The translations under genes were made by a program, and so were the position numbers. DNA of 64,000 nt, taken from an uncultured bacterium. GTDB lineage: Bacteria > Cyanobacteriota > Vampirovibrionia > Gastranaerophilales > Gastranaerophilaceae. Below, one piece after another: positions 34,488-43,520 of the stretch. The stretch is from positions 15,558 through 79,557 of the forward strand of contig CACYKP010000002.1 in NCBI GenBank assembly GCA_902775025.1, in the 5' to 3' direction. The notes under the pieces were generated by a model. That model made no database searches. It was not told where the DNA came from and worked only from the letters and a program-made list of their open reading frames with translations. The stretch's first letter is position 1. Every line of letters begins with the position of its first letter.

Positions 34488-36452
34488 TTGGAAGTAAATA
34501 ATAATCAAAATATAATAATTTCAAAAGCTCCGTTTAATAACACTCAAACTGGCGGAGAAAATAATCAAACAAAAAATTATACACCTGCTTTTAAGGGTTC
34601 ATTAGATAATTTTTTGAATAAGTCAGGTTATGTAATGAATAAAATTGAAAGCGGAGGTTTTCTTGTATTATTTTTAATACAGGATTTTCTGGGGATGACG
34701 CTTCCGAGAACTTGTGCAGGCTTTTTAAGAGATAAAGAAGTTACCGGTGAATACAATATTCAGGAAGGTTTCGAGGTGCTGGGCAGAGAAGGTCTTACCG
34801 GACCTTGTATGATGGCAGTTGCTCCTCTTTCGCTTTGGCTTGCTTCAAAAACTTTTGGGCAATCAACAAGCATTAATACTGAGCTTATTAAAAGATACGG
34901 AAATAGCTTAAAAGAAATATTATCGGCGCCTGATTTTAATAAAGAATTGCTTAAAGACGGTAATAAATTTAAGTCAGAGTTTTATAGAAAAAATGTAGAA
35001 AATATTTTAAAAGAAACCCTTGGAGAAAGAACTGCAGAAGAAACAAAAGCTTCTGTTGATTACATAATGAAACAGCTTGAAAATTGTGAAAACATTCCTA
35101 AAGATGTTAAAATTAAAAAGTTTATGGGCAAATCAAGGTACAGAGAAGAATGTTTAAACAATATTTCAGACCACATTAATGATATCAAATACCGCACAAG
35201 TGAAGATTTGAACATGTTAAAAAAAGTTAAACTAAGTTCAATAGGTGCAAAAGATACAAAGGTATTTGATGTAAAAAAAGCGTTTGACGGTTTAATAAAG
35301 TATTCAAATGATGCTATAAAATTTAATAAAAATTTAGACAAACTTGACAGTACTGTTGCTGAAAGCCTGAAACACAGCGCATTGGGTAAACGTGTTATTA
35401 TGAACGTTGCTATGATAGCGGCAACATTAGGTATGCTATCTGTATTGCCAAAATTGTATTTGAGAAGTAATACTGCTCCGGGAGCTAGGAAAAAGGCTAA
35501 GACTGATGAAAATTCTAATAATGAAAATATAGCATTTAAGGGTAAAAATAATCTAATTGAAAAACTCGGTAAAGCTGTTGAAAAGAACAACAAAGACTTT
35601 GTGTCATCAGAACTTGAATATAACGGACATAACTTTACTAATACATTAATGGCCGGTTTATCGTTATTCGGTTTAATTACTCCAAGATGCATGAGAGCAT
35701 ATTCAAGGGCACAAGTTGATGAACATACAGGTAAAAAAGATAAAACGGAACTTTGGGAAATTATAATCAGAGATATTACATCATCGCTTGCCGTCGTATT
35801 TGCAGTTCCTATGATGACAAGAGCATTAGTAACATCATACGAAAAGAATTCAGGTTATGTATTAATGCAAAAAGATAGGTCAATGAGTAAACTTAAAACT
35901 GTATTAGACTTGTTAAATCCTTATAGCAAAGCTCATGTTTTATCAAATGCCGAGATTACCGCTTTATATGAAAAAGTAGATTCTAAAGAAAAAATGGTTA
36001 ACTTCTGTAAATATATAGACAAAAATGGTGGAGATTTACAAAAGATTCTATCAAAATCTGAGAATTTGAATGAAATATTCAATGAAAAAACGAAAACGCT
36101 AGATGCATTAAAGAAAATGAACAAAACGGATGCAAATAAAGAAATAACATCTATTATTGAAAATATTGAATCACATGCGAAAAAGCTTGGAAAATCGGTT
36201 GATAAAAAATCAATAGATGGTATGATAACTAAATTGATGAAGGGCGCTTCAAAAGGTGGGAATAGTAAGATTACTGCTATTGCAAGAGGGTTGAACTCTG
36301 TTCCGGGACTTCTTACAACCTTATTTATATCACCATATATTTTGGGATGGTTTATTCCTCGTTTGACATATTGGAATACTAGACGTATTCATGCAAATGA
36401 AGACAGAGAACGCGAAGCACAAGAGCAAAATAAACTAAAGACTACAGTATAG
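34488..36452 (+). CDS. Lineage-specific multi-pass membrane protein, paralogue of 5948..7378
   Basis: TTG start; two halves each preceded by AFKG; QD.LGM..PRT...EG.EV..RE motif. Confidence 0.75.
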   Translation: MEVNNNQNIIISKAPFNNTQTGGENNQTKNYTPAFKGSLDNFLNKSGYVMNKIESGGFLVLFLIQDFLGMTLPRTCAGFLRDKEVTGEYNIQEGFEVLGREGLTGPCMMAVAPLSLWLASKTFGQSTSINTELIKRYGNSLKEILSAPDFNKELLKDGNKFKSEFYRKNVENILKETLGERTAEETKASVDYIMKQLENCENIPKDVKIKKFMGKSRYREECLNNISDHINDIKYRTSEDLNMLKKVKLSSIGAKDTKVFDVKKAFDGLIKYSNDAIKFNKNLDKLDSTVAESLKHSALGKRVIMNVAMIAATLGMLSVLPKLYLRSNTAPGARKKAKTDENSNNENIAFKGKNNLIEKLGKAVEKNNKDFVSSELEYNGHNFTNTLMAGLSLFGLITPRCMRAYSRAQVDEHTGKKDKTELWEIIIRDITSSLAVVFAVPMMTRALVTSYEKNSGYVLMQKDRSMSKLKTVLDLLNPYSKAHVLSNAEITALYEKVDSKEKMVNFCKYIDKNGGDLQKILSKSENLNEIFNEKTKTLDALKKMNKTDANKEITSIIENIESHAKKLGKSVDKKSIDGMITKLMKGASKGGNSKITAIARGLNSVPGLLTTLFISPYILGWFIPRLTYWNTRRIHANEDREREAQEQNKLKTTV

Positions 36453-36469: not shown

Positions 36470-37141
36470 TTATAGATAGTTTGAAAGAATTGATTTTACA
36501 TAGTTTTGAGTTTCTTTGTAAGGAGGAACTCCGTCATATTTATCAACGGCTCCTGGGCCGGCATTGTACGCCGCAAGAGCAAGTATGATGTTTCCGTTGT
36601 ATTTATTAAGCATGGATTTTAAGTATTTAATTCCGCCTTCTACATTTTGCTCAGGATCCATCGGGTTTGTTACACCAAGACCTTTAGCGGTTGAAGGCAT
36701 CAATTGCATTAATCCCATTGCACCTACTTTTGATTTTGCATTAGGGTTGAAGCCGGACTCTTGTTTTATAAGTGCATTTACAAGTTTCTCGTCAACACCG
36801 TGTTTTTTTGACATTCTTGATACAATATCTTGAATTTTTTGTCTTACGCTGATTTTGTCTTGAGCAGTACTTGCAGTTGCCGTATATAATTGAGCATTAA
36901 CCTTTGTCGTCGGGTTTGTAAGCAAATCACCAAATTTTACCGTTGTTGAATTTTTTAATACAGAATCAAAAGATTGAATTTGGCTGGTGCTTCCGTTTGT
37001 TTGCTGCATAGCACTATTTGTGTTTACAGGAGTCCATTGGTCATTATATTTATTGACATAATTATTCATCTGAACCGCTCTTTGCATAGCATTAGCTTGT
37101 CCTGATGATGATAATAAGCTTTGTAACATTGATGAAAACAT
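36470..37141 (-). CDS. Lytic transglycosylase (SLT domain)
   Basis: [42 protein letters not shown]. Confidence 0.95.
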
Positions 37142-37189: not shown

Positions 37190-37323
37190 GATTAAAAACC
37201 AAATATCCACTATATGGTTTAATAATACTTTTGATTAAGTCAATATACATATTAAGTTATGCAAAATTATAGATTTTTTTTACTTAATATGGTATTATAG
37301 ATACGAGCATGGGAGAGTGTTAG

Positions 37324-38904
37324 GTGGATACGGAAAATATAACTATATTTGAAGATGATTTATTATTAGCGCAAGAATTATGCGCATCCATATCGGATTC
37401 AAATATTCGAAATAGGGCAGTGGCTAATATTGTCGCTGCAAAAATTGCATCAAGATTTTTTAATAAGGATTATCAAACGGATATAGAAACCGGATTGCAT
37501 AATGTACCAAGTATTTTGGAAAAGTTTGACATATCGGATATTTATGTAAATAATTCATACATAGATGTTAGAGTTTATTTTACGTGTGATGAACTAAGTG
37601 TTCCTAAATCACAATTTGATTTAGGGATGCTGCCTGTATTATACATGTTTATAAAAATTAAACCTGACTTGTCAGGTGGTGCAGTTGTCGGATTTATAAA
37701 GCCGGAAAATGTTGATAAAGAACATTTAATGCAGGATTATTATTATATTAGTGAGAATTCATTAGAGTCTTTTTACAATGTTGAATCTAACTTGAAATTT
37801 GCTTTAGATGTGGTTGATGTTCCGTCTGAACTTATTTATCGGTACATTGACGGAAGTTTGGATGATGAAGCTCAAGTCAGATTTTTGCAAGAATTAATTA
37901 AATCAAAATCTTCGAGAATAAAACTTGCAAAAATAATAAAAGCTCAAACAGTTTTTAATTCTGTATTATTTTCTGATTCTGCGGTATCTGAACCAAACGA
38001 AAACGACCTTGGTGTTGCTGAAACGCAGCAAGAGGAAGTGTCAACCGAGAATTCGCAAGATACAGATTCTTCGGAAGCGGTTTTAAAAACAGAAGAAGAG
38101 GAACTGTTAGAGGCGTTAGATTATACAACAGAGGTAACTCCGAGTAATGCAGAGTTATTAGCAGAAGATGCTGAACATGATGCACAAACTGACGAAACCT
38201 CCGAAGCGGCTTCTGCTAATGAAGAGATAGAAGCTCTGTTTAACGGGGAGCAAGAAGGAGTGCCTGCAGCAAAGAAGAAAAATTCAAATGCTTTTGTTGT
38301 TTTGCTCCTTTTATTGATGCTCTTAGCCGGAGGTTATTTTGCATATACAAATTATGCAAAAATGCAAGATAGCTATTCTCAAAATGCATTACCTGAGTTG
38401 TCTGAAGAAGTTGTTTCCGAACCTGTATCAAATCCTGCTCAAGAAGAAGCGATGCCGGTAGAAACCGTTGAAGCTGTTTCTAGTGATAAAAATAAGCAAG
38501 AAGAGGCTGTTGCTGTTGCTATTCCCGCAATAGAAAAACATTTGGATGCTTCCGTGCTGGTATCAAATTTGAGGGTAGAATGGGAAATTCCGGCAGGTTA
38601 TACAAACAATTCCGCAGCAAAAAGATATTTGTATAAATTAGGCAAGATAATTCAATTGAATTTAAGATCTGATTTGCTTCTGTTGAGTAAACCGCCTTTG
38701 GCAAATAGAATTACTGTGGAGTTAAGGTTTAATTCTGACGCTTCAAGGTTTGAATTTGTAGGTATTAAGGATTCAAGCGGAGAGAGAACTGTAGATGCAA
38801 CAATTACGGATACTGTTAAGAATGCTTTAAATTCTCATATTAATTCAAATACTGATACATTTGGAAAATTGCAGGGAAATCCGATATTAATAATACGTTT
38901 GTAA
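37324..38904 (+). CDS. DUF1822-like / anti-sigma-like membrane protein with C-terminal TonB-C-like domain
   Basis: N-terminal DISDIYV...IDVR...YMFIKI...VVGF; ELIYRYIDGSL helix; one TM (FVVLLLLLMLLAGGYF); C-terminal YLYKL..IIQ...VELRF...SSG...D. Confidence 0.55.
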   Translation: MDTENITIFEDDLLLAQELCASISDSNIRNRAVANIVAAKIASRFFNKDYQTDIETGLHNVPSILEKFDISDIYVNNSYIDVRVYFTCDELSVPKSQFDLGMLPVLYMFIKIKPDLSGGAVVGFIKPENVDKEHLMQDYYYISENSLESFYNVESNLKFALDVVDVPSELIYRYIDGSLDDEAQVRFLQELIKSKSSRIKLAKIIKAQTVFNSVLFSDSAVSEPNENDLGVAETQQEEVSTENSQDTDSSEAVLKTEEEELLEALDYTTEVTPSNAELLAEDAEHDAQTDETSEAASANEEIEALFNGEQEGVPAAKKKNSNAFVVLLLLLMLLAGGYFAYTNYAKMQDSYSQNALPELSEEVVSEPVSNPAQEEAMPVETVEAVSSDKNKQEEAVAVAIPAIEKHLDASVLVSNLRVEWEIPAGYTNNSAAKRYLYKLGKIIQLNLRSDLLLLSKPPLANRITVELRFNSDASRFEFVGIKDSSGERTVDATITDTVKNALNSHINSNTDTFGKLQGNPILIIRL

Positions 38905-38921
38905 CGAAGAAGAGAGCATAA

Positions 38922-40538
38922 ATGGATAAAAATAATAAATATTACGGAATAATCGAAAATTTAGTAAGAAATCACAGGAAATTCCTCGGATTGGAAGCGA
39001 TTCTTGACGATATTATAGATGATGTTTATAATCATTCTAAATCAATTATTGGCACGATAAAAGATGATAACGTAATAGAGGGGTATTTAAATAAAGTAGT
39101 TTCTACATCAATAATAACAGTACCCAAAAAAATGAATTATCAAAATGTGCATCGACAACATATACCCTCAGAGTATGAATCAGTCAAAGCAAAAATAGAT
39201 GCTGAATTGAAATATGAAATTAAACCAAAAGAGCAAAAAACAGATAATGCCGCTCAAGTCAATGTTTTAACGGCTGATGTTAAAGAACTTAGCAATGTAA
39301 AAACCGAAGAACAGCATGAAGATTTAATCGATGATAGCGAATTAGAAAATATTTTAACGGAAGAAAATATAATATCAGGTCAAGGTGAAGTTGATTATGA
39401 AGAGTTAGAAATAGAATCAGAAAAACCAAATACCGAGTTTGTTGACAAAATGATTAATTCTATAACGGAGGATACATTAAAGGAAAATGGTTTATCCGAA
39501 GAAGAAATCGATGATGACGATGCAGTTTCTGAAGATGTTGTAGGAATAGAGGATAGTGCAGATAACAGTCTTGATGGCTTTTTAGAAGATGAAACGGAAA
39601 ATGTTGTAGAAATAGCTGATGAACAATTAATTCAGGAAGATAATATTAAAGAAGAGGAACTTGTTAGCTATTCAGATGTCTCTGATATAGAAAATTTAAG
39701 CGAACTTAATGTTGAAGAGAAAACAGAAACAGAAACAGAAACAGAAAAGCTAATTCTTACTGATGATACAACTGAGCTTGACGCAGATTCTTATTCAGAA
39801 CCCGAAACTTTTTCAGCAGAAGAGAATGACGATATATTGTCTGCGGAGGAAGATTTTATAATTGAAAGTCCTAATGAAGTTGATACGGAAGAATTAGAAG
39901 TTATAGAGCCGGAAACAGGCAAAATTGAGCTGTCTCAAAAAACTGGTTTCTCAGATGATTCTTCAAATTTTGAAGACGTAGAGATGTTAGAGCTGGAGAA
40001 TACAGAATCAGAACAAGAAAAAATAGACTTATCAGATGATGGATTATTCGAGAATGAGGTTGAAGACTCTTTATTAATGCAGGAAAATAATGATGCACCT
40101 GTATTGATAGACGGCTTGCAAGATGATATAGAAGAATTAGGCTCACAGGAAACATTCGATTTAAGTGGTGAAGATAGTGAAACAATTTTAGAATTAAATG
40201 AAGATGATAGTATTGAACCTTTTGAAGATAATACTGAATCGGATTTAGTTGTATTTGAAGATAATAAAGAAGATGATATTTCTGAAAATAAAGAATTTAA
40301 GCCGGCAGATTACTCTGCATTTGATTATAGTCCGCAAGAAAAAGAAACAAAGTATGACAGTGGTGAAATTGTTTCAAAATTGCTGGATGTTGAGCAACAA
40401 GAACCGGATTTAAATATTTTGAAGATTTTTGATTTAAAATATAAGCAGAATTTAACAATTGAAGAAATTATGGCAGAATTAAATCTTGACAAACAAGAGG
40501 TTATCGCTGCATTGGATAAAATGGTGGATTTGATATAG
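38922..40538 (+). CDS. ECF-sigma-like protein with a very long acidic linker
   Basis: N-terminal sigma2-like LDDIIDDVY...YLNKVVSTSII; C-terminal sigma4-like IFDLKYKQNLTIEEIMAELNL..QEV; D/E-rich middle. Confidence 0.55.
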   Translation: MDKNNKYYGIIENLVRNHRKFLGLEAILDDIIDDVYNHSKSIIGTIKDDNVIEGYLNKVVSTSIITVPKKMNYQNVHRQHIPSEYESVKAKIDAELKYEIKPKEQKTDNAAQVNVLTADVKELSNVKTEEQHEDLIDDSELENILTEENIISGQGEVDYEELEIESEKPNTEFVDKMINSITEDTLKENGLSEEEIDDDDAVSEDVVGIEDSADNSLDGFLEDETENVVEIADEQLIQEDNIKEEELVSYSDVSDIENLSELNVEEKTETETETEKLILTDDTTELDADSYSEPETFSAEENDDILSAEEDFIIESPNEVDTEELEVIEPETGKIELSQKTGFSDDSSNFEDVEMLELENTESEQEKIDLSDDGLFENEVEDSLLMQENNDAPVLIDGLQDDIEELGSQETFDLSGEDSETILELNEDDSIEPFEDNTESDLVVFEDNKEDDISENKEFKPADYSAFDYSPQEKETKYDSGEIVSKLLDVEQQEPDLNILKIFDLKYKQNLTIEEIMAELNLDKQEVIAALDKMVDLI

Positions 40539-40547
40539 GTTGATTAT

Positions 40548-43520
40548 ATGCAATGTCCCAAATGTAAAACGGAAATAGATGAAAAATCCTTAAAATGCAA
40601 AAAGTGCGGAACAAGGGTAGCATCTGTATGCAAAAATTGCGGGACTGTAAATCCGATAAGGGCAATAGAGTGTTCTTGTTGTCATAAAGTTCTTTTGAAA
40701 ATTTGTGCAGAATGCGGCAGTGCAAATTTACCGGAGGCAAAAAATTGTCGTAAATGCGGAACAATATTTGATGATGAAGAAAAAAAATCTTCAAAAACAG
40801 TTAATAACTTGAAAGCTGAATATTCAGCAGAACTTTTTTCACAGCAAAAGGCTAAAATAAGCTTGTTAGAGGCAATCAAGGAAGCCGATACTTCTATAAT
40901 TACACTAAACGGAGAAAGCGGTGTAGGTAAAAATTTAATTATACGATATATAATTAATGATTTAAAAAATGCAAAACTAATTTGGTTATCCGGAGCTTGC
41001 ACACAGATATCTCAGTTATCTCCGTTCGGATATTTTCAGGATGTATTATTAAACTTTTTTAATATTAATAATTTTTGTCCTGATACTTTGCAATTAAAGA
41101 AAAATTCAATACGTTTTTTTAAACAGGATTTTCCGTCTCTTTCTCATTCGGAGATATTGGATTTATTAAATGTTTTGTACCCAGAAAATGTTGATAAGTT
41201 TGAAAATATTTATCGTAATAAAGCAAAAATGTTTATTATGATGAAAAAAGTTTTTTTAACAATAGTAGAAAAAGTAAAAGCTGTTTTTGTAATTGACAAT
41301 TTTGAAAATATTGACGGTATGTCATTTGATTTTCTGCAAGAGCTTTTAAAAGATGAATATATACTTCAAAGATGTAAGTTTATAATAGTATCTAGGGAAG
41401 TAAAACCAGGAATGGGAAGGATTACATCACCGATATTACGTCCCGAAAATTATAAAGATATTACGGTTGCACCTTTTACCGAAAGTCAAATAGAGACTCT
41501 TATAACTCAATATAGAGATGTTAATATAGGTTCTGATTTTATAAAACTTGCAGCAAAATTTTCCGGAGGGAATCCTGCATTTGCTGAACAAATGGTTATG
41601 ATGTATAAGGATTTAAAACGGAATAGTTTAAAATATGTTAATTATAGTTCTATAGAAGATTTAATCGAAGCCCGTTTAAATATACTAAAGCAAGAGGATT
41701 TGCAGTCTTTTAGAGTGTTAACGGCAATGTCTGTTTTGGGGGCAAAGTTTTATCCGGCTATGTTGGAGAATTTTGATAATAATTCTCCTCAAGAATTTGA
41801 AAGAATTATAGATGATTTGGTAAATAAGGGCTTTATTAACCAAATAAATAATTTATCATTTGAGTTTAAAAGTCATGATGTATGGAAAGCAATTGTTTCA
41901 ATAGTAAAAAATGACGAAAATTTTGAAGAGATTATTAATATACTTTATGACATATTGAGTATTTATAAACAATCTTCAATTGCATTGTTGGGGTATATTG
42001 TACAAAAATTAAGTAATAATGATCAATCATTTGAAATATGGACTATCCTTATGAAACAAGCATCATATATAGGCGACATTGGTCTTTATATTATTTCTCA
42101 AAAACAGGCATTGAAGCTTATAGAACATAAGACCGGTCCTTATTTTATGAAAATTAAGAAAAATATTTATACACGTGTAGGAAAACTCTTAGAACCAATA
42201 GATCATGTTGCGGCATTTGATTATTTACAAAAAGCTGCAATGATGCTTGATGACAATGAAGAATATGAACATGTCGATTTGTTGGGATATTTAGCATCTG
42301 CATCAATGAAGATGGGCAATTATTGGGGAGTAATAGAGTGCGCGCAAAGTGTGTTAGAAAAAATTCCAGAAGATATGGAACTTGAGCGAGCATTAGTCAA
42401 GTCTCGTGAAGTTCGTCCTATGGTAAAATTAGGAAATTACGGTCAAGCTGTTAATTTTATTGATAATGAGATTATGCCGGTTATACAAAAATATCTTTCA
42501 AAAGGGAAAAATTATTCTGTTATTAGTTCAAACGAACTTTATGAAATATGGTTGGAGATATATTTTGATTTAGCAGAGGCTCTGACTTTCCAAGGCGATA
42601 GCAGAATGTTTGATATTGTAAAACTAATCTTTGATATAATCGAAAAAAATAAAATAACAGAGCCTACTATTTTATGCAGAGTGCATTTGGCACTGGCTCT
42701 TGCTAATACTGTTAAAGGTGATTTGCAAACTTCTGAAAAAATACTCGATGATATAATAAAAGAATTTTCTCTTGAAAGTATGGATTCTTTTATTGTTTCA
42801 AGATGGAATTTCATAGATATTATTAACAAATTTATAAGAAAAGATTATGATAACTTGATGGTTGAATTATTTAACGTTGTTGCATATGCTAATAACGTAA
42901 ATGATAATTTTACAAAGAATATATTAAAAACACTTCTTGCAAAAATAATGCGAGATAAAAATGAAACAAAACGTGCATTAGAGATTTTAGATGAGCAGGT
43001 TACGCATTTTGCAAAAGAAAAAGTTGCAACAGGTGTGTTACTTTCTTGGTTTCTCATAGCAGAATTGCGCCTTGTTACAAAAGGGACTCAATTTGCACTT
43101 GATATTGCAACAAAGGCATTAGACATTGCTCAGGGACCAAATATTAATAACTATTATTTTATAGCATTGTTTAACAGATTAATTGGTGAAATATATATTG
43201 CAAAGCAGGATTTTGAATCAGCAAAAGTTTATATAGAGAAATCAATTTTTGTAGCGAAACAATTTGATTTACAGGATATTTTAGTCAAAGATTATCTTCA
43301 ATATGCAAAATATTTTCAGGAGCTGGCAATTCCAAAATCTACACTCAGACCTATGTATATTAAACAAGCATTAAAAATGTACCAAATGGCTAAAAATGTT
43401 TCTATAGTATCAAATCATCCTCATTTGATGCGCAAGATTAAAGAGGATTTGTCTATCTTAACTTCTTTTTGTAAATTAAACGGAATTATATTGAAAAAAG
43501 GCTCTGTAAAAGAGGGGTAA
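40548..43520 (+). CDS. Zinc-ribbon + STAND-type AAA NTPase + TPR-like protein
   Basis: Six CxxC pairs, Walker A LNGESGVGKN, Walker B FVIDN, GGNP motif and a helical C-terminal repeat region. Confidence 0.8.
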   Translation: MQCPKCKTEIDEKSLKCKKCGTRVASVCKNCGTVNPIRAIECSCCHKVLLKICAECGSANLPEAKNCRKCGTIFDDEEKKSSKTVNNLKAEYSAELFSQQKAKISLLEAIKEADTSIITLNGESGVGKNLIIRYIINDLKNAKLIWLSGACTQISQLSPFGYFQDVLLNFFNINNFCPDTLQLKKNSIRFFKQDFPSLSHSEILDLLNVLYPENVDKFENIYRNKAKMFIMMKKVFLTIVEKVKAVFVIDNFENIDGMSFDFLQELLKDEYILQRCKFIIVSREVKPGMGRITSPILRPENYKDITVAPFTESQIETLITQYRDVNIGSDFIKLAAKFSGGNPAFAEQMVMMYKDLKRNSLKYVNYSSIEDLIEARLNILKQEDLQSFRVLTAMSVLGAKFYPAMLENFDNNSPQEFERIIDDLVNKGFINQINNLSFEFKSHDVWKAIVSIVKNDENFEEIINILYDILSIYKQSSIALLGYIVQKLSNNDQSFEIWTILMKQASYIGDIGLYIISQKQALKLIEHKTGPYFMKIKKNIYTRVGKLLEPIDHVAAFDYLQKAAMMLDDNEEYEHVDLLGYLASASMKMGNYWGVIECAQSVLEKIPEDMELERALVKSREVRPMVKLGNYGQAVNFIDNEIMPVIQKYLSKGKNYSVISSNELYEIWLEIYFDLAEALTFQGDSRMFDIVKLIFDIIEKNKITEPTILCRVHLALALANTVKGDLQTSEKILDDIIKEFSLESMDSFIVSRWNFIDIINKFIRKDYDNLMVELFNVVAYANNVNDNFTKNILKTLLAKIMRDKNETKRALEILDEQVTHFAKEKVATGVLLSWFLIAELRLVTKGTQFALDIATKALDIAQGPNINNYYFIALFNRLIGEIYIAKQDFESAKVYIEKSIFVAKQFDLQDILVKDYLQYAKYFQELAIPKSTLRPMYIKQALKMYQMAKNVSIVSNHPHLMRKIKEDLSILTSFCKLNGIILKKGSVKEG

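Follow-up and report, generated by a model that had tools for sequence, protein, structure and literature searches.

Here we describe a three-gene operon in a 64,000-nucleotide stretch of DNA (hereafter the window; contig CACYKP010000002.1 of assembly GCA_902775025.1) from an uncultured member of the Gastranaerophilaceae. Gastranaerophilales are common, uncultured bacteria of the human and animal gut, and to our knowledge almost nothing is known of their gene regulation. We consider it about 70% probable that this operon is the Gastranaerophilales version of an ancient sigma/DUF1822 module of the Cyanobacteriota, consisting of an anti-sigma factor (gene 1), its cognate sigma factor of the extracytoplasmic function (ECF) type (gene 2) and a signal transduction ATPase with numerous domains (STAND) that carries tetratricopeptide repeats (TPR; gene 3), and that it has been remodelled in the CAG-196-like genus to which the window belongs. 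As an initial annotation made from the sequence alone had stated, three co-oriented open reading frames (ORFs) are closely packed here: gene 1 (37324-38904; 526 amino acids, GTG start), gene 2 (38922-40538; 538 amino acids) and gene 3 (40548-43520; 990 amino acids), with gaps of 17 bp and 9 bp, respectively. These genes, and all features placed below without a strand, lie on the plus strand.

A conserved three-gene operon of the Gastranaerophilales

Species-representative genomes were scanned with a profile of eight short gene 2 orthologues, which gave 300 loci; the synteny counts refer to the best 80 of them. Genes 1, 2 and 3 follow each other in this order on one strand in at least 62 of the best 80 loci, across many genera and with gaps of 9-100 bp. 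None of the other window genes is conserved in the compared loci, the flanks of which differ, indicating that these three genes travel as a unit; chance cannot account for synteny on this scale. Whole-genome searches placed genes 1 and 2 next to each other in 23 of 24 in-genus genomes and in the majority of the families sampled from the order, and all three genes co-occur in 40 of 41 genomes. The gene 2 profile was found in all 32 genomes of the family and in both genomes of one further family, and 116 genomes from the other families of the class gave no match. Overall, the module is present as a single copy in essentially every genome of the order. A homology search with a giant orthologue was dominated by low-complexity words and returned 13 matches.

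Because genes 1 and 2 of the window match no curated family, the analysis was run through their orthologues. For gene 2, the short positional orthologue L085 of a neighbouring genus passes the sigma-70/ECF model TIGR02937 (74 bits; cut-off 42.9), and the profile of short orthologues matches Bacillus subtilis SigW over its full length (E 3e-5) as well as region 4 of SigF and region 2 of SigE. Databases name these orthologues 'sigma-70 family RNA polymerase sigma factor' or, in one source, 'sigma-24 (FecI-like)'. The AlphaFold2 (AF2) model of the window protein shows a two-domain sigma2 plus sigma4 architecture: a sigma2-like four-helix domain (residues 1-95; 38922..39206), with a predicted local distance difference test (pLDDT) score of ~95 for residues 1-75, and a sigma4-like four-helix helix-turn-helix domain (residues 480-538; 40359..40538; pLDDT 90-97). 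In Foldseek searches, sigmaE region 2, SigH and sigma28 prevail in the list for the N-terminal domain, with weak E-values, and the C-terminal domain matches region 4 of sigmaE, SigR, SigD and SigW (TMt 0.56-0.66). Between the two domains lies a polyacidic, disordered insert in the sigma2-sigma4 linker (residues 96-479; 39207..40358; pLDDT <50), which bears out the earlier description of gene 2 as a giant acidic protein.

Gene 1 begins with a cytoplasmic alpha/beta head (residues 1-165; 37324..37818) homologous to the N-terminal half of DUF1822 (PF08852). An hhalign comparison with 14 cyanobacterial DUF1822 proteins aligned residues 1-154 of the window protein to model positions 7-171 (probability 90.5%, E 1.4e-6), the homology being limited to the N-terminal ~155 of 370 model positions. 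PF08852 matches eight of 18 gene 1 orthologues, with out-of-genus orthologues above the Pfam threshold (best DUF1822 E 1e-12), and precomputed PF08852 matches are present on relatives ~50% identical to the window's gene 1; the window protein itself gave no match to PF08852 at E<=1. The DUF1822-like N-terminus proposed earlier is therefore supported by orthologues, profile comparison and fold, but for the N-terminal half only and not by a Pfam match of the window protein. In the AF2 model, which was built on 80 sequences, residues 1-220 have a pLDDT >93 and form the alpha/beta domain packed on three helices. Weak PD-(D/E)XK nuclease-like matches were the only hits of the head among folds of the Protein Data Bank (PDB), and these were given no weight.

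The three helices (residues 166-219; 37819..37980; pLDDT ~96) bear the anti-sigma-domain (ASD) motif ELIYRYIDGSL. Out-of-genus orthologues score above the cut-off of zf-HC2 (PF13490), and their alignment contains YxDGxL...HLxxCxxC with the zinc ligands H-x3-C-x2-C. In the window's genus these ligands are replaced (QELIKSKSS in the window, where LIKSKSSR aligns with HLxxCxxC) and the YIDGSL helix is kept, so the anti-sigma-like helix that had been noted is present but has lost its zinc site. It is followed by an acidic, disordered cytoplasmic spacer (residues 220-322; 37981..38289; pLDDT <50), which is ~100 amino acids long in the window versus several hundred outside the genus, and by a single transmembrane (TM) helix, NAFVVLLLLLMLLAGGYFAYTNY (residues 323-349; 38290..38370), evident both in the sequence and as a helix at 323-349 of the AF2 model. 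The KKK preceding this helix places the N-terminus of gene 1 in the cytoplasm.

Beyond the membrane, a disordered periplasmic linker (residues 350-401; 38371..38526; pLDDT <50) leads to a confidently modelled periplasmic domain like TolA domain III and the C-terminal domain (CTD) of TonB (residues 402-526; 38527..38904). Foldseek matched it to TolA III (6s3w and 1lr0; probabilities 0.91 and 0.60) and to the Helicobacter pylori TonB-CTD (6sly; TMt 0.58), the fold matches spanning probabilities of 0.6-0.9 and TMt of 0.4-0.58. Gene 1 orthologues pass the TonB_C/TonB_2 cut-offs and the window's gene 1 falls below the threshold of these hidden Markov models (HMMs); this domain is the best conserved part of gene 1. 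The TonB-C-like end and the one TM helix of the initial annotation thus both held up. Together, gene 1 has the layout of a class I anti-sigma factor (a cytoplasmic ASD, one TM helix, an extracytoplasmic domain and an adjacent sigma gene), with the ASD standing not at the N-terminus but behind the 165-residue domain.

Gene 3 had been read as a zinc-ribbon STAND-TPR protein, and this assignment proved sound. It opens with a double zinc ribbon and a third ribbon (residues 1-75; 40548..40772; Pfam DZR E 4.3e-9, above cut-off), the Cys pairs of which are conserved in orthologues. The STAND/AAA_16 NTPase (residues about 100-330; 40845..41537) matches AAA_16 at E 2.4e-7 and 31.9 bits, just below the cut-off of 32.6 bits, which orthologues pass at 42 bits. 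The remainder is a helical sensor arm of MalT-like TPRs (residues about 331-990; 41538..43520), where matches to TPR_MalT, TPR_8 and TPR_1 are weak in the window and stronger in orthologues. Gene 3 is the best conserved of the three genes, with 59-78% identity within the genus. Outside the family, its orthologues have 1100-1345 amino acids and an additional segment of 200-350 residues that separates the ribbons from the NTPase; a degenerate cyclase was considered for this segment and rejected, no cyclase or other domain being detectable. A second large ORF of the genome (1147 amino acids; G000:C14:27428-27634) opens with a similar double zinc ribbon, and comparable second copies in several genomes of the genus may represent a paralogous STAND-type protein.

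The link to cyanobacteria comes from DUF1822. Of 73 genomes from the window's family, 63 encode a single DUF1822 copy; photosynthetic cyanobacteria have as many as ten. In Nostocales, each DUF1822 copy examined follows a sigma-like gene. The proteins encoded by these sigma-like genes are mostly ~390 amino acids long and pass TIGR02937 with an insert; at two loci they have 222-234 amino acids and no family match. When two Nostocales genomes were searched in full with the Gastranaerophilales sigma profile, the top-scoring proteins were exactly the DUF1822-adjacent sigma factors. Anabaena azotica (L148-L151, G060) carries at least four paralogous modules of a sigma-like protein (222-403 amino acids) and a DUF1822 protein, three of which adjoin a CHAT domain fused to CHASE2 or to a periplasmic-binding domain, and the fourth a CHASE2 protein without a CHAT match. 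Neighbourhoods of ECF sigma, DUF1822 and EACC2-caspase genes in cyanobacteria have been noted before, computationally only (Kaur et al., eLife 2021, PMC8195603). This kinship suggests that the regulatory device is ancestral to the phylum: the module, a core single-copy operon of its order, ties a non-photosynthetic lineage to the sigma-DUF1822 modules that have multiplied in filamentous cyanobacteria.

Several observations weigh against this interpretation. Taken alone, genes 1 and 2 of the window match none of the sigma2/sigma4, DUF1822 and TonB-C families that the initial annotation had looked to, although their orthologues do: gene 1 matched no family in Pfam or NCBIfam, gene 2 likewise had no match there, including Sigma70_r2/r4, and a TIGR02937 search of the genome misses gene 2. 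Every assignment for these two genes consequently passes through a chain of orthologues and predicted folds, and Foldseek E-values were >0.05 for the gene 1 model and >0.8 for the gene 2 model despite its sigma-dominated list. Moreover, the STAND gene lies elsewhere in the genome in 12-14 of the best 80 loci (about 15%), with genes 1 and 2 together, showing that coupling in cis is not obligatory. The negative relation between the lengths of genes 1 and 2 within the genus (Spearman coefficient -0.49, n=23) is uncorrected for phylogeny, and even in relatives the strict promoter motif described below is essentially unique to the operon.

Remodelling in the CAG-196-like genus

Outside the genus, the motif TTGGAATA(T/A)TTTT-N8-TG-N3-TCT is found in 66 of 72 loci, ~60 nt before gene 1, and its GGAATA-N13-TG-N3-TCT core has a sigmaE-like arrangement of -35 and -10 elements. 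Among four out-of-genus genomes, three have a single strict-pattern site, namely the one at the operon; in the fourth there is one additional site, probably a chance match, within a shikimate-dehydrogenase-like gene that runs in the opposite orientation. A site essentially confined to the operon fits positive autoregulation together with a very small or divergent regulon. Out-of-genus operons carry an ECF-type promoter that is apparently autoregulatory.

The window's operon lacks such a promoter, and no GGAATA-type site was found in its whole genome (best position weight matrix (PWM) score 18.4 versus a training median of 36.8). Instead, an extended -10 element of housekeeping type, TGGTATTAT, forms part of the promoter of the genus, TAGA-T8-ACTTAATA-TGGTATTAT (37270..37298; 11 in-genus loci). 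Every in-genus locus has the pattern TAGA-T8-N8-TG(G)TATTAT at the homologous place, and the genome contains it only once. Downstream of it, the Shine-Dalgarno sequence GGGAGAG (37311..37317) is invariant in the in-genus upstream regions and stands 7 nt before the GTG, which supports this codon as the start of gene 1. Scanning the window for consensus promoters and terminators gave no useful information, its DNA being AT-rich. A near-palindrome, ATATCCACTATATGGTTTAAT (37204-37225), which every in-genus locus also has, may serve as an operator. It is located ~100 bp upstream of gene 1, between this gene and the divergent SLT lytic-transglycosylase gene (36470-37141, minus strand), a gene neighbour conserved within the genus, not across the order.

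The two proteins changed as well. Gene 2 products have 183-221 amino acids in every other genus examined versus 407-653 in this one, where all of them are annotated as 'hypothetical' and have no Pfam domain. The insert of the window protein (about 385-390 residues; ~35% D+E, 5% K+R) is specific to the genus, in which the linkers have 32% D+E and 3% K+R with an isoelectric point (pI) of about 4. A tandem-repeat origin was considered for this insert and found no support beyond a 27-bp AAACAG run. In one genome of the same genus (G008:C12), two ORFs of 257 and 274 amino acids (L011, 158-982 and 988-1761) stand in place of a single gene 2 orthologue and encode sigma2 plus an acidic part and an acidic part plus sigma4, respectively; this may be an assembly or frameshift error in a low-complexity region or a natural split. 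The recognition helix of sigma4, KQEVIAALDKM in the window, lacks the K/R residues that are kept outside the genus (SEVSKRLFKL): the mean number of K+R per helix is 0.05 (0-1 each) in 115 in-genus proteins versus 1.94 in 79 out-of-genus proteins. The window's gene 2 therefore lacks two hallmarks of ECF sigma factors, the short linker between sigma2 and sigma4 and the basic helix for -35 recognition. The ECF-like character claimed for gene 2 is supported by the TIGR02937 match of the orthologue, the SigW profile match and the folds, but the basic helix and the ECF-type promoter have been lost in the genus.

Five changes thus coincide in the genus: the shift of the acidic spacer, the loss of the ASD zinc site, the loss of K/R from sigma4, the replacement of the ECF-type promoter and a Walker A motif ending in GKN in gene 3. 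Mean lengths of genes 1 and 2 are 640 + 497 = 1137 amino acids in the genus versus 1001 + 196 = 1197 outside it, and most of the polyacidic spacer now resides in the gene 2 linker and not in the anti-sigma factor. As for gene 3, its Walker A (GESGVGKN; 40911-40934) and Walker B (VFVIDNFE; 41283-41306) depart from the canonical GxxxxGK[ST] and hhhhD[DE]. In the genus, Walker A reads GESG[VI]GKN versus GK[ST] in other genera, and the DN of Walker B (IDNF) is shared with some genera, others having DD.

Since both sigma domains are conserved in the genus, the gene 2 product there appears to be functional, but probably not in the ancestral way. The moved spacer, the lost K/R residues and the replaced promoter suggest that this sigma factor either changed its specificity or no longer reads a -35 box. 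Going further, gene 2 in the genus might be an ex-sigma polyanionic protein that serves as an RNA polymerase (RNAP)-binding decoy, a DNA mimic or a tether, with the operon read by the primary sigma factor, an alternative that we regard as unlikely overall but as having a serious chance of being right. It would account for the loss of K/R from the recognition helices of the 115 in-genus proteins, for the genome-wide absence of the ancestral promoter (best PWM score ~18 versus a median of ~37) and for the consensus-like TGnTATTAT extended -10 in its place; the failure of sigma HMMs to find gene 2 and a linker with 32-35% D+E and a pI of about 4 also agree with it. However, in-genus identities of 65-77% in the N-terminal domain of gene 2 and a sigma4 fold modelled at pLDDT >90 indicate that both domains are under constraint; specificity can shift without basic residues at the same positions; and the genus promoter, also unique in the genome and conserved, could be a new autoregulated target.

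The sigma2-sigma4 linker normally threads the RNAP cleft. A specific and rather doubtful version of the change is that the ECF sigma factor turned into a sigma-derived RNAP-binding factor which does not read the -35 box, and that the acidic, DNA-mimic-like spacer of ~400 residues, ancestrally a part of the anti-sigma factor, moved in function into its linker while the -35-reading residues and the autoregulatory promoter were given up. If so, the conserved summed spacer length of the pair would suggest that the target of the acidic spacer is the entire sigma/anti-sigma complex. The genus provides a natural experiment in which domains, spacer and promoter changed together, and it can show which features of an ECF sigma factor are dispensable and what role long polyacidic spacers have.

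Proposed mechanism and competing explanations

In the mechanism that we propose for the sigma/DUF1822 module, gene 1 would encode an anti-sigma factor that crosses the membrane once and, through its head and ASD, would hold the gene 2 sigma factor at the inner membrane. The sigma factor could be freed by an envelope cue through the periplasmic domain or by a cytoplasmic cue through the STAND-TPR protein. The latter would be a cytoplasmic switch in the slot of the cyanobacterial CHAT protease-sensor, and it may act non-proteolytically by binding the DUF1822 head or the spacer. The one M50 site-2 protease found in the genome could serve classical regulated proteolysis. The signal, the targets and the role of the STAND protein are what we infer here. 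Under this proposal, DUF1822 gains a defined role that can be tested, namely as part of an anti-sigma factor, and the sigma/anti-sigma pair gains a third partner of a new kind, a STAND ATPase.

A CHAT protease encoded in trans was considered as a conserved partner of the module and rejected, since CHAT occurs in only two of 61 genomes of the order. In the window's genome, a CHAT domain scores just above the Pfam cut-off in one 996-amino-acid ORF (G000:C53:7199-7903, L158) that is unlinked to the operon. The near absence of CHAT from the Gastranaerophilales suggests that in this order the third position belongs to the STAND protein.

STAND NTPases with TPR arms are widespread as immune sensors, and the operon could accordingly be a conflict or anti-phage system in which the STAND-TPR protein senses an invader in an Avs-like manner and switches on the sigma factor, comparable to ECF-DUF1822-caspase systems and to the protease/anti-sigma/sigma cascades of type III-E CRISPR. 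Kaur et al. class the cyanobacterial cousins among conflict systems (PMC8195603), and weak matches to the CAS_III-E sigma model were seen in cyanobacterial and short orthologues. This explanation is nevertheless improbable: PADLOC gave no match for the three window proteins, the single-copy module is present in essentially every genome of the order, and the identity of the STAND protein (59-78%), the highest of the three, is unlike that of fast-evolving immune sensors. The neighbourhood also argues against it, as the operon stands among housekeeping or unrelated genes (aroA, an S24 repressor gene, ychF, the divergent SLT transglycosylase gene, rnpA and a flagellin gene) with no effector gene. 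An ORF of 654 amino acids at 34488-36452 of the window has no Pfam match.

Trans-envelope signalling, as the initial annotation had called it, can also be understood in the FecI/FecR/FecA sense, with the TonB-C-like end contacting an outer-membrane TonB-dependent transducer and relaying ligand occupancy to the sigma factor. The TonB/TolA-like periplasmic domain on an anti-sigma factor and the database name 'sigma-24 (FecI-like)' for an orthologous sigma factor would be in keeping with such cell-surface signalling. But neither a TonB-dependent receptor barrel (PF00593) nor a Plug domain (PF07715) was found in the genome (2.29 Mb, 32% G+C, 96.5% complete), in which control searches were positive; gene 1 gave no match to the FecR domain; and the His of the TonB SHLS motif is missing from its TM helix, its periplasmic linker not being Pro-rich either. 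The receptor-based part of the earlier reading is therefore weakened, and we think this kind of signalling very improbable. Because no TonB-dependent transducer is encoded, the periplasmic domain of gene 1 is unlikely to work with one, and it is more plausible that it contacts another envelope protein in a TolA-like manner. The genome encodes five other TonB_C proteins and an ExbD pair; at G000:C7:22541-24833, two TonB_C genes and two ExbD genes are clustered and may belong to a Tol-like or other envelope motor.

Finally, that the three genes are functionally unrelated neighbours can hardly be right: a STAND homologue does lie elsewhere in 12-14 of the best 80 loci, but the shared order and strand in at least 62 of them without any conserved flanking gene, as well as the co-occurrence in 40 of 41 genomes, speak strongly against it.

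Comparison with known systems

Full-text literature searches on DUF1822 found this name in just two papers and returned no description of this operon. The initial annotation had called the combination undescribed, which stands for the operon itself but not for the linkage of a sigma factor and DUF1822 to a third sensor gene, which was already noted (PMC8195603) and is confirmed here in Nostocales. With the cyanobacterial sigma-DUF1822-CHAT module, the operon shares a sigma gene linked to a gene for a DUF1822-type protein and to a large third gene for a sensor or switch. The two differ in gene order, which is anti-sigma, sigma and third gene here and sigma, DUF1822 and CHAT there. In addition, only the N-terminal half of DUF1822 is present here, fused to the ASD motif, the TM helix and the TolA/TonB-like domain, and the third gene encodes a zinc-ribbon STAND-TPR protein without a protease in place of CHAT. 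The cyanobacterial sigma factors have ~390 amino acids with structured insertions, whereas those of Gastranaerophilales have ~190 amino acids or, in the CAG-196-like genus, 407-653 with a disordered acidic insert.

In Anabaena PCC 7120, HetZ, a sigma factor of the ECF type, has three insertions, PatU3 is its inhibitor and HetF is a CHAT protease that degrades PatU3 (PMC13342950, PMC9457339). This is the logic to be expected for the cyanobacterial sigma-DUF1822-CHAT cousins, namely an inhibitor encoded downstream and removed by a CHAT protease. Neither the membership of PatU3 in DUF1822 nor the identity of HetZ as a DUF1822-adjacent sigma factor could be confirmed. In 34 cyanobacterial loci, no DIF1 promoter (TCCGGA-N16-17-TGNA) was found except for one intragenic site, and the cyanobacterial DUF1822-adjacent sigma factors and DUF1822 proteins had no match in the PDB. 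The insertions of HetZ are folded and read DNA, unlike the disordered, acidic insert described here.

The pairs formed by ECF sigma factors and zinc-binding anti-sigma (ZAS) factors, such as SigW-RsiW of B. subtilis and sigmaE-RseA of Escherichia coli, are alike in that a sigma2 plus sigma4 sigma factor is encoded beside a single-pass anti-sigma factor with YxDGxL...HxxxCxxC, as seen in relatives of the window, and in the sigmaE-like, apparently autoregulatory promoter of those relatives. Here, however, the ASD stands after a 165-residue DUF1822-type domain and before a long polyacidic spacer, the periplasmic domain is TolA/TonB-like and a STAND ATPase is the conserved third member; the window moreover has neither the zinc ligands nor the basic residues of sigma4 nor the ECF-type promoter. 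Gene 3 in turn resembles the STAND NTPases of the MalT clade (AAA_16) in having an AAA_16 NTPase followed by MalT-like TPRs. It differs from them in its N-terminal triple zinc ribbon, in having no DNA-binding or other recognisable effector domain and, in the window's genus, in the GKN of Walker A and the DN of Walker B. Overall, the module is a variant of the ECF sigma/anti-sigma kind, and not a new category, and it is a cousin of the module noted computationally in cyanobacteria.

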